From Escherichia coli (GTDB lineage Bacteria; Pseudomonadota; Gammaproteobacteria; Enterobacterales; Enterobacteriaceae), in the NCBI RefSeq assembly GCF_050920415.1, contig NZ_CP169309.1: a stretch of 64,000 nucleotides of DNA; one strand, written 5' to 3'. Shown in pieces: positions 55,380 to 58,236 of the stretch. Made by a program: the position numbers and the translations under genes. The notes beneath the pieces were generated by a model. The model searched no databases. It was not told where the DNA came from and saw nothing but the letters and a program-made list of their open reading frames with translations. Every line of letters begins with the position of its first letter. The stretch's first letter is position 1.

Positions 55380-55388
55380 AATAAGATA

Positions 55389-55421
55389 AGGGGTTACCAA
55401 ATGGTAACCCCTTAGTTTTTT
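55389..55421 (+). terminator. serT terminator hairpin
   Basis: aggggttacc-aaat-ggtaacccctt followed by agtttttt. Confidence 0.7.
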
Positions 55422-55580
55422 AGAGCCTGGTATATTTTCAGCTCTCAATGCCAACAACAATTTTTACAACCACACCAGATCTCTACTCTCCAAAAAAGTC
55501 TCAATACCCCCTCCCTGACAAAATGCGAACAACATCACTTCACTAATCAGCCTGACATCGCATGCTTAGCAAGCTAATTA

Positions 55581-55862
55581 CGAATCCCCGGAGAAGGTGG
55601 AAACACGGCTGTAAGCCACACCCGCCATCATGCTGAATTAGCAGTTACGCACGGAGTCTTCATGCCAGCGGGTATAACTGTAACGGGTAAGCAGGCGATT
55701 CCTGTCTCCTGCATAGCTGAATGACGTCACCAGCCCCAGCGTGTCCGTAAATTCATAGCGGTATTTCACATTGAACCCGGTTAAATCATCACTGCCGGAC
55801 ATATCAGAACGGGCATGAAGATACCCGGCACTCAGTTTTGCCGGTAGTTGTGGCATCTTCAT
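55581..55862 (-). pseudogene. remnant of a Lom/Ail/PagC-family outer-membrane protein gene (prophage-type)
   Basis: 74-aa ORF carries the family motif GFNVKYRYEF but no signal peptide; an in-frame TAA is followed by a further family-like stretch [19 protein letters not shown], then another stop. Confidence 0.55.
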
Positions 55863-55938
55863 CGTGTTTACGCCTTCGACATCCAGATAACCGTCACTGC
55901 ATTACCTGAAACCGACACCGTCACGGGTGTCCCCGCAT

Positions 55939-56358
55939 TCAGCCTGAATACTTTGATCCAGATTGCGATGCAGACTGGTCTGTAACTGTCGTCACCATAC
56001 CCCGGATTTCTGCCGCTCCAGACACTGTCTGTATCCTCGAAAGGATCGCAGAGAAAACTGGTGTTTGCTCGTTACCGTTAAAGTACAGGTGTTCAGCACT
56101 ACCCAGCATCACCAGATTCATGGTAAATACCTGGGCAGGTATATACACACTGTTACCGTTAAGCACATACGTATTCGCAATATCTCCGGTTACACGGAGA
56201 ATCAAAAGAGGGGAACCGCAGCCCGCAAAACGAAAAAGGCCACGCAGTTGCGCAGCCTCATAAATTGTGGTTGAAATCCGTTCGCCTATAAAAAAGCCCC
56301 TCCGGAGAGGGGCAGGTATACTCATCACTTTCATCATCTGCATGGCGCCGGGTGTCAC
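55939..56358 (-). CDS. hypothetical ORF (139 aa), possibly a prophage gene fragment
   Basis: ORF upstream of the lom-like remnant on the same strand; no homolog recognised; may be non-coding. Confidence 0.2.
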   Translation of the reverse strand: MTPGAMQMMKVMSIPAPLRRGFFIGERISTTIYEAAQLRGLFRFAGCGSPLLILRVTGDIANTYVLNGNSVYIPAQVFTMNLVMLGSAEHLYFNGNEQTPVFSAILSRIQTVSGAAEIRGMVTTVTDQSASQSGSKYSG

Positions 56359-56786
56359 CCGGTGAGTTCAGTATCAGCACCTGAATCCGCGATTATCCAT
56401 ATTCCTGCTTGCTGATTGCCCCTCCGCACAGGGGGATTCATCATGCGAAATTATTTTTAACAAAACGACGGGTTATTCTCCAGTACCCAACATAATTAAA
56501 TGTGATGTTTTTAACACTTTTAAAGATTTTAACTTAGTAGTTATTATTTTTAATACTCACCCCCGTCTTTATAGCGAATTTATATTTTCGTTTGCGCCAC
56601 TCTGTTTTAATACCCAAAAAAAATATCAATTATCGATAAAAATATAGTAAACAAATAAACACACTCCGAAAGAACCAATAACTATCATCGCTAATGCCAG
56701 CATAAATAGTTGTTGTACGCTTATTTTCACCGATGAAAGGTAACGCATAAAAGTGCTCAACATACAGTACTAATAATCCTCTATAA

Positions 56787-56858
56787 AGTGGTCAGCGGGA
56801 ATCGAACCTGCATCATCAGCCTGGAAGGCTGAGGTAATAACCATTATACGATCACCGC
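56787..56858 (-). tRNA. tRNA-Gly(UCC)-like sequence, possibly a pseudogene
   Basis: reverse complement GCGGTGATCGTATAATGGTTATTACCTCAGCCTTCCAGGCTGATGATGCAGGTTCGATTCCCGCTGACCAC resembles E. coli glyT, but the acceptor stem pairs imperfectly and no CCA is encoded. Confidence 0.4.
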
Positions 56859-56859
56859 A

Positions 56860-56936
56860 TGGTGCACCATACTGGATTCGAACCAGTGACCGATTGCTTA
56901 GAAGGCAATTGCCCTATACAGCTGAGCTAACGGCGC
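56860..56936 (-). tRNA. tRNA-Arg (anticodon UCU), island-borne
   Basis: 77-nt reverse complement GCGCCGTTAGCTC...ATTGC-CTTCTAA-GCAAT...ACTGG-TTCGAAT-CCAGT-ATGGTGC-A-CCA folds into a cloverleaf with G-U pairs in the acceptor stem. Confidence 0.6.
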
Positions 56937-56940
56937 ATGA

Positions 56941-57010
56941 TGGTCCATGTTGCGCTTGAACCGGCGACCTTGCGGTTATGAGCTGCTCGCTCTGACCATT
57001 AGAGCTAAAT
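56941..57010 (-). tRNA. tRNA-Ile2/Met (CAU)-like sequence, probably degenerate
   Basis: reverse complement ...TAGCTCTAATGGTCAGAGC...CTCATAA...GGTTCAAG...ACATGGACCA resembles ileX-type tRNA from the D-arm to the 3' CCA, but the acceptor and T stems do not pair well. Confidence 0.3.
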
Positions 57011-57286
57011 TATCAATAATTTTCTTTTCAATAGCATGCATATTCCAGCTACGTAATCCACGCTAACGTTTATTAAAAACAAATTCAACAAAAACAAAGT
57101 TAGTGATATTTTTTTATCTAATACCAACATTAATCAATATTATGTGATTTAGATAATCCGCCCTATTAAACAACTTCATTCATTAGCACAATGAGTGTTC
57201 AACTATCTATTGAAATAAAAGAACATAAGAGGTATAGATATCTCCACAGCAGACATTACATCTAAAAGATCACCAAACCAGACATT

Positions 57287-57634
57287 ATGATAAAAAAGAT
57301 TTTTATAACGTCTTTAAGTATCCTCTGTATGGGGGTAATTGTGGATTATCCTCATATCGACAGCAGAATATCGACAAACGAAATAATCAATTGTCTTTCC
57401 AAGACTATGCAGAAAAGTGGTTATATAATGGATCTAAATGGAACTAAACTACCAATTAATGCAAAAGAATTCGCAACATACAAAATGTCAAAATACACCG
57501 GTTCATTCTGGATAGAATATTCAACAGAAGGAAGGCCAACAAGAGATGTTGGTATAATAAATGCAACAAATGATAGTTATAATATCTTGAACGATACATT
57601 GCAATTTTGTAGCAATATCATGGCAAAATATTAA
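57287..57634 (+). CDS. hypothetical exported or membrane-anchored protein (115 aa) in a very AT-rich segment
   Basis: ATG ORF with hydrophobic N-terminus (IFITSLSILCMGVIV); strongly AT-rich codon usage unlike flanking core genes; no recognisable RBS. Confidence 0.45.
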   Translation: MIKKIFITSLSILCMGVIVDYPHIDSRISTNEIINCLSKTMQKSGYIMDLNGTKLPINAKEFATYKMSKYTGSFWIEYSTEGRPTRDVGIINATNDSYNILNDTLQFCSNIMAKY

Positions 57635-57650
57635 CATCAACAGTTAGTAT

Positions 57651-57869
57651 GTGTACATCTCTGTGAGAAACCGTCGTAATATCAGTCAGCAACACCCCCC
57701 TTTTGGATGCAATTTCCACGACATAAAGGTGAAAGGTATCCCGGATTACGAAGGAAGTCGTCGCGACAAACAAATTTTCAGTGGACATAAAACAGTAAAT
57801 CAGGTGTTGATTTACGATCGTAAAAAAATCACACCAACACTGGATTTGCCGCTCGTGGTTAGTAAGTAG
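57651..57869 (+). CDS. hypothetical small protein (72 aa)
   Basis: ORF 16 bp downstream of the 115-aa ORF on the same strand; no homolog recognised. Confidence 0.25.
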   Translation: MYISVRNRRNISQQHPPFGCNFHDIKVKGIPDYEGSRRDKQIFSGHKTVNQVLIYDRKKITPTLDLPLVVSK

Positions 57870-57973
57870 ACAATCCAGAAAGTTTTCTGGCAAAAAGACT
57901 TGGTATACTAACTATCAAAAATCACCTAACATATTGATTTCTTTTGGCACTTAATTTGATTAACTTTTCAACA

Positions 57974-58028
57974 TTGAAAACCGGCGACCCGAAAAGGTTC
58001 CAGAGTTTGAATCTCTGCGCTTCCGCCA
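57974..58028 (+). repeat. direct repeat of the serT 3' half (attR-like)
   Basis: ttgaaaaccggcgacccgaaaaggttccagagtttgaatctctgcgcttccgcca matches serT 55325-55379 with 2 mismatches; followed by a diverged copy of the serT terminator. Confidence 0.85.
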
Positions 58029-58236
58029 GATAAGATAAGGGGTGAGCTAAATGCTAACCCCTTTTTCTTTTGCCTGTCGAAATTCTCAGGGCGTTATATC
58101 ATTGCTTAATGACCTGAAAATCTGCTGTTAAACCTGTTCCAGATCAAATGCGTAAAGATGGGTAAAACTTCTGGGTGCCCTTACGCATTATCATTATGCT
58201 GCTTAATTAATTACATCTGTCATAGAGAGTGACTCA

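Follow-up and report, generated by a model that had tools for sequence, protein, structure and literature searches.

A 2.6 kb insert separates the tRNA gene serT from yccA in the 64,000-nucleotide (nt) stretch of Escherichia coli DNA analysed here (contig NZ_CP169309.1), which we call the window and whose positions serve as coordinates throughout. The insert, hereafter the islet, is most likely the immobile residue of a lambdoid prophage, one of the type found at serT in O157:H7 (probability about 0.9). We suggest that a phage tyrosine integrase recombined a phage attachment site (attP), which carried the last 55 nt of serT and a terminator, with the serT 3' end. Integration would have rebuilt serT with the phage terminator and moved the original 3' end and the native terminator next to yccA. 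At least five internal deletions likely followed, several of them between short microhomologies. If the ancestor was of a size with the 49.7 kb O157:H7 prophage, about 47 kb or about 95% of it would have been lost. The remnant would then have been passed on vertically in one E. coli lineage.

The serT repeat and the empty site

The islet is flanked by the hya operon and serT to the left and by yccA-tusE-yccX-rlmI to the right. Over the 3.5 kb compared (55000-58500), the window is 100% identical to the chromosome of E. coli strain MFDS1022581 (NZ_CP169399.1). The 3' 55 nt of serT (55325-55379) form the left core of the attachment site (att), and a second copy with two mismatches is found at 57974-58028, leaving 2594 bp between the two. 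The first-pass annotation had already reported this copy, and computed alignment bears it out, with no such match in 100 dinucleotide-preserving shuffles. The repeat extends across the terminator hairpin for a total of 97 nt at 85% identity, with a spacing of 2649 nt. Over the 85 nt aligned with BL21 (55295-55379), serT is identical.

In BL21(DE3), serT is followed by its own terminator and yccA without any insert. We surveyed 5426 complete E. coli genomes with a 501 bp query across the BL21(DE3)-type serT-yccA junction. The junction is uninterrupted in 4664 genomes (86%) and split in most of the remaining ones, for example by a prophage with an integrase abutting yccA. Only two of the 5426, this strain and N96, carry the 2.6 kb insert, in line with the earlier expectation that it is not a general feature of E. 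coli. Aligned to the empty-site allele, the insert boundaries fall exactly at the repeat. The left copy is host-like up to ...GGGGTTA (AAGGGGTTA); past this point the loop and 3' stem of the hairpin differ from the empty site, and the DNA beyond is foreign. In the right copy the situation is mirrored, with foreign DNA before it and, after it, the native terminator and the sequence that normally lies upstream of yccA. Such a reciprocal pattern of host and foreign sequence is expected from an attP carrying a copy of the tRNA 3' end together with its own terminator. The locus thus combines a direct repeat at both insert ends, an intact serT, empty-site alleles and reciprocal junctions, and these uphold the initial proposal of an element integrated at the tRNA 3' end.

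The assignment of the terminators had to be turned around. The first-pass annotation described a diverged copy of the serT terminator downstream, and a hairpin does follow each copy of the repeat. The empty-site alignment identifies the downstream hairpin (58036-58062, with one stem substitution at 58044) as the native one and the hairpin adjoining serT as phage-derived. Predicted folds reach -20.3 kcal/mol for the phage-supplied terminator, -21.6 kcal/mol for the native terminator at the empty site and -17.5 kcal/mol for the displaced copy. A direct repeat could in principle also arise from a local duplication or an assembly error, yet only its bare existence speaks for such an origin. The identical structure recurs in independent assemblies, the DNA between the repeats is phage-derived, and the insert ends where complete prophages at serT have their att sites. 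Duplication and misassembly are refuted by these observations, and we give them practically no credence.

Collinear lambdoid prophage debris in the islet

We compared the insert by BLAST with E. coli genomes and phages and then, locally, with the references retrieved. Nearly the whole insert matched lambdoid phage DNA, which answers a check proposed at first pass; the only stretch unmatched in the fetched references spans about 85 nt (55435-55519). The same annotation had asked for larger, integrase-bearing versions at serT. O157:H7 strain ECP19-198 carries one, a 49.7 kb lambdoid prophage between serT and yccA with its integrase beside yccA. Its genes are arranged in the order serT, tccP2, tail fibres, lom, J, tail, head, lysis, nanS-p, tRNAs, Q, exo, int and yccA. 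Pieces of the islet match positions 1-209, 3773-4073, 30943-31617 and 49570-49847 of this prophage, with order and strand preserved. The surviving pieces likewise run monotonically and on one strand along the ST866 prophage, consistent with a lambda-type gene order. The islet is hence collinear with a far larger prophage, as a residue of one should be, and the first-pass annotation read it correctly in this respect.

Table 1. Features of the serT-yccA interval, with positions in the window.
Feature	Position	Strand	Evidence
serT, tRNA-Ser(UGA), intact	55292-55379	+	ARAGORN; Rfam tRNA 57.5 bits
Phage-supplied serT terminator	55380-55421	+	12-bp stem 55387-55414, then T run; empty-site alignment, terminator scan
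Non-coding stub from the end of the phage genome (arm past the tail-fibre genes)	55422-55583		82-91% to other lambdoid prophage termini
lom fragment (Ail/Lom outer-membrane protein), internal	55583-55836	-	PHROG 108, E=1e-24; RefSeq pseudogene
Tail-tip gene J, 3' fragment	55837-56192	-	93% identity to gpJ region of strain M8
Late regulatory region piece	56185-57694	-	85-92% identity to intact ST866 prophage
STnc100-family prophage small RNA gene	56284-56476	-	Rfam RF02076; terminator 56296-56313 (terminator scan)
tRNA-Gly(UCC)	56786-56858	-	ARAGORN; Rfam 45.1 bits versus 62.7 in ST866
tRNA-Arg(UCU), structurally intact	56860-56936	-	ARAGORN; Rfam 61.5 bits versus 68.7 in ST866
Degenerate tRNA-like sequence, CAU anticodon loop	56940-57010	-	Aligns to third tRNA position in ST866, ASU11 and O157
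115-amino-acid orphan open reading frame, hydrophobic N-terminus, ~30% GC	57287-57634	+	Present in intact ST866 prophage
Tyrosine integrase 3' remnant, last 57 codons	57699-57869	+	Residues 283-339 of a 339-amino-acid protein
Phage arm, integrase stop codon to right att core	57870-57973		Contiguous 86% match to O157:H7 prophage
Right att copy: displaced serT 3' 55 nt and native terminator	57974-58070	+	Alignments to serT and to empty site

The individual pieces are debris of structural and integration genes (Table 1). The stub of the phage genome end matches sequences that sit at other att sites, for example in ECOR29, ST865 and M8. The disrupted lom-like gene noted at first pass was recovered as a fragment that has lost both ends and retains 82-92% nt identity to the lom genes of three prophages. 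The J fragment has a 90% match that lies wholly inside the annotated gpJ of SCU-111, as well as a weak match to a tail-fibre PHROG. Its fusion with late-region DNA gives rise to a chimeric open reading frame (ORF) of 139 amino acids (aa) at 55939-56358 annotated as hypothetical. The deletion junctions show microhomologies of 6-9 nt relative to the references. Within lom, 48 nt are missing between 9-nt repeats (CCCGCCATC), and CCGG-TA is found at the fusion of J with the late region. Microhomologies of this kind are typical of illegitimate recombination, which may have produced the deletions.

The first-pass annotation stated that the interval contains no integrase, and this needs amending. A tyrosine integrase gene persists as its last 57 codons, at the expected place and in the expected orientation beside the att copy. 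BLASTP gives 91% aa identity to the integrase of the O157:H7 serT prophage, with 86% identity at the nt level. RefSeq lists the stub as a pseudogene ('integrase, missing N-terminus'). At 57 of 339 codons, the stub marks ancestry rather than a working gene. With neither an integrase nor an excisionase, the remnant is predicted from its gene content to be unable to excise by itself. No complete replication, lysis or morphogenesis module is present, so the islet qualifies only as a remnant. The chimeric 139-aa ORF and the 115-aa orphan are the sole open ORFs in the insert. A 45-aa ORF at 56626-56763 shows no sign of being a gene: it drew no match from PHROG or NCBIfam and differs from the DUF3927 protein that neighbouring prophages encode.

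The closest known counterpart by position is the O157:H7 serT prophage, which is probably Sp4/CP-933M, as its tccP2 and sodC content would fit. Literature searches on serT with prophage or yccA, and with CP-933M or Sp4, gave nothing useful for this name. Both elements share the att site, the integrase beside yccA, late genes reading towards serT, and the order of lom and J, late-region tRNAs and int. The O157:H7 prophage is about 50 kb and largely complete, whereas the islet holds 2.6 kb and no complete phage function. The integrase and arm are only about 86% identical in nt, and the att identity of the islet starts 6 nt later. The tRNA sets also differ (Arg-Gly in the islet, Ile-Arg-Arg in O157:H7), as do the phage-supplied terminators. 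The ST866 prophage shares with the islet a homologue of the 115-aa ORF, the tRNA-like sequence, tRNA-Arg(UCU), tRNA-Gly(UCC) and STnc100 at 85-92% nt identity. Unlike the islet, the ST866 prophage is complete, is integrated elsewhere, has higher scores for its RNA genes and contains an AgvB-type small RNA (sRNA). DLP12, Rac and Qin of K-12 offer a parallel at larger scale. They integrated and then decayed by deletion, they retain scattered late-region, lom, tail and accessory genes, and they are fixed in their lineage. These prophages span 10-23 kb with many open genes, some with an integrase, whereas the islet is about ten times smaller and has only the 57-codon int stub.

The att boundaries differ among elements at serT. 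The yccA-side junction of O157-type prophages starts 60 nt before the serT 3' end and that of the islet 55 nt before it. In H165 (NZ_CM176338.1, strain CAVP776) and similar genomes, the junction starts about 14 nt before the tRNA 3' end, which suggests that a second class of elements with a shorter att core also uses serT.

Accessory genes of the late region

About 1.5 kb of the islet stems from the late regulatory region. In intact lambdoid prophages, this module lies between the antiterminator gene Q and the nanS-p (SASA) esterase and lysis genes, which is where the stx genes sit in Shiga toxin (Stx) phages. The module is collinear with the O157:H7 prophage and the Stx phage ASU11. Positions 56400-57700 are AT-rich, with 27-35% GC.

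The sRNA gene is matched over its full length by the STnc100 model (positions 1-206) at 111.7 bits, against a gathering score of 47 and 132.3 bits for the ST866 copy. Among known prophage-borne sRNAs, STnc100 is a relative of PasD and typically found in Stx-like phages (bioRxiv 10.64898/2026.05.13.724894). RefSeq annotates a frameshifted 'hypothetical protein' pseudogene at 56339-56460, overlapping STnc100 on the opposite strand; this pseudogene is probably spurious. In the ST866 prophage, an AgvB/AsxR-type anti-sRNA (12099-12158, + strand, of our locus L004) lies directly beside STnc100. The AgvB-type sRNA is deleted in the islet, where 10 nt (56279-56290) replace a stretch of about 70 nt.

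An opposite-strand cluster of tRNA-type genes was noted at first pass, and two of its members, Gly-UCC and Arg-UCU, are indeed called as tRNAs. The third is not a recognisable tRNA. tRNA-Gly(UCC) has two acceptor-stem mismatches and one T-stem mismatch, as paired by hand from the alignment, and no encoded CCA; this gene is probably decaying. The third tRNA-like sequence drew no ARAGORN or Rfam call and occupies the position of the tRNA-Met/Ile gene of Stx phages. We considered it as a possible deletion breakpoint and rejected this, since its counterpart in the intact ST866 prophage is degenerate too (28.3 bits). The sequence is therefore an old pseudo-tRNA.

No PHROG or NCBIfam family matches the 115-aa ORF. 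Its homologues form nine clusters at 61-99% identity, the named ones all from Escherichia, with no precomputed Pfam domain. RefSeq predicts a shorter version of 97 aa starting at 57341. This start is probably too far downstream, as several homologues have the full length of 115 aa, which favours the upstream start. The ORF is a conserved prophage accessory gene and an orphan. It lies after the position of Q, upstream of the tRNAs, and is oriented opposite to late transcription; in Stx phages, the tRNAs are immediately followed by the stx genes. Q itself is missing from the islet, and the ST866 match stops before the Q gene. The late promoter pR' of lambdoid phages lies just downstream of Q. 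As Q and the adjoining stretch are missing, the pR' stretch is missing too.

The retention of exactly the late region rich in accessory genes raises the question of whether selection kept the islet. Domesticated cargo could include the tRNAs Arg(UCU) and Gly(UCC) for rare AGA and GGA codons, the STnc100/PasD sRNA and a small exported protein. The full-length STnc100 match far above the gathering score, the intact tRNA-Arg and the open 115-aa ORF, conserved at 61-99% in other Escherichia, would fit such a role. So would the 99.5-100% identity of the islet among carriers with differing flanking alleles, but recent common descent explains this near-identity equally well. The three RNA genes, moreover, score below their copies in an intact prophage, tRNA-Gly carries three stem mismatches and lacks CCA, and pR' and Q are deleted. 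The rarity of the islet, in 2 of 5426 complete genomes, also argues against selection. Selective retention is thus unlikely, and we prefer passive decay of a lambdoid prophage.

Carriers, tandem prophages and significance

Beyond the two complete genomes, draft assemblies carry the islet too, and a 97-aa marker protein of the islet is indexed on about 90 contigs. In all ten places retrieved, the islet lies between serT and yccA at 99.5-100% identity. Eight of the ten places are distinct draft assemblies; the other two are this strain and, apparently, strain N96. In roughly half of the carriers examined, serT and the islet are separated by a complete lambdoid prophage, about 48 kb long and with its integrase intact. 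The tandem carriers, N96 and five of the ten places, are L003/L009 (strain N96), L010, L012, L016, L017 and L018; one of the five places may itself be N96. They contain three att copies in the order expected if a new phage had entered a working serT. A tandem prophage beside the scar means that serT is still an active attachment site. serT is listed as a prophage site, and tandem prophages are reported to be common in Shiga toxin-producing E. coli (PMC8767318, PMC10673567). The tandem prophage of L017 has a different immunity and replication module (Peptidase_S24, DnaT). This suggests more than one independent integration or an exchange of modules.

The tandem arrangement could also indicate that the 2.6 kb unit is still mobile, as a non-autonomous element excised and perhaps transferred by the related integrase of the tandem prophage. 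Both att cores are largely intact, and in about half of the carriers examined the complete prophage lies directly upstream and shares the middle att copy. The unit was nevertheless found only at serT-yccA. Its arm differs from those of the tandem prophages, with serT identity starting 6 nt later and 77-86% nt identity over integrase and arm. It also lacks xis, cos and replication functions and consists of collinear gene debris rather than a compact functional module. We consider a still-mobile unit highly improbable and retain the interpretation as an immobile prophage remnant.

Islet carriers fall into two groups by the allele of their right att copy. Four substitutions (57995 A, 58008 T, 58029 G and 58044 G) are common to most of them, the more diverged L013-L015 among these. 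All carriers of the four substitutions but L013 have a second small cluster at 58100-58123 as well. In the window, eight changes fall within 130 bp (57995-58123), with four in the tRNA and terminator copy followed by +CA, T>A and C>T upstream of yccA. N96, L012 and L017 have the canonical right att copy and a different flanking haplotype (yccA-rlmI) that reaches past 60 kb. Over 57974-58240, identity to the other complete E. coli genomes is at most 97.4%, and the cluster of eight changes is absent from these 5,400-plus genomes. A variant 40-mer, used to seek a donor attP, had no match in viral contigs or in GTDB species-representative genomes. Private recent decay of the right copy, considered in view of the perfect copies in N96 and O157:H7, was rejected as most islet carriers share the four substitutions. 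With the crossover placed at the tRNA 3' end, the first three substitutions fall on its phage side. The two-allele pattern points to homologous recombination in the yccA flank. The implied endpoint is within 57683-57995, at the att copy or immediately to its left.

Several points weigh against the islet being a remnant of an O157:H7-type serT prophage. The search for intact relatives turned up none above about 86% nt identity in the integrase and arm, and so no direct ancestor. The original size and the number of deletions are estimates by analogy with relatives. The four substitutions of the right att copy may be polymorphisms that came with the phage arm, or they may reflect early decay in a copy without function. 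The allele detail leaves the main conclusion unaffected.

The window has further Rfam matches above gathering score that are unrelated to the islet. These are a Ysr251 antisense RNA (519-712, + strand), naRNA4 (CssrE; 1856-1933, - strand), ES036 (CssrF; 17957-17999, + strand) and a cspA-type thermoregulator 5' untranslated region (36048-36470, - strand).

Prophage remnants at tRNA genes are textbook features, and the islet is ordinary in kind as a lineage-restricted, heavily decayed lambdoid remnant at a known tRNA site. A broader role is conceivable but doubtful. The islet could be a retained mini-islet expressing the STnc100/PasD sRNA, tRNA-Arg(UCU) and a small exported orphan protein, and its intact att copies could also, or instead, let phages stack and recombine with or mobilise the remnant. 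The islet has little importance of its own. It provides a cleanly dissected example of shrinkage to an estimated 5% of the presumed size, in which the two att copies, the collinear remains of phage genes and the integrase stub can still be recognised. The insert is usable as a lineage marker, and the STnc100 sRNA, tRNA-Arg and the orphan ORF lend themselves to a cheap domestication test. The tRNA site, for its part, stays open to new lysogeny beside the scar.

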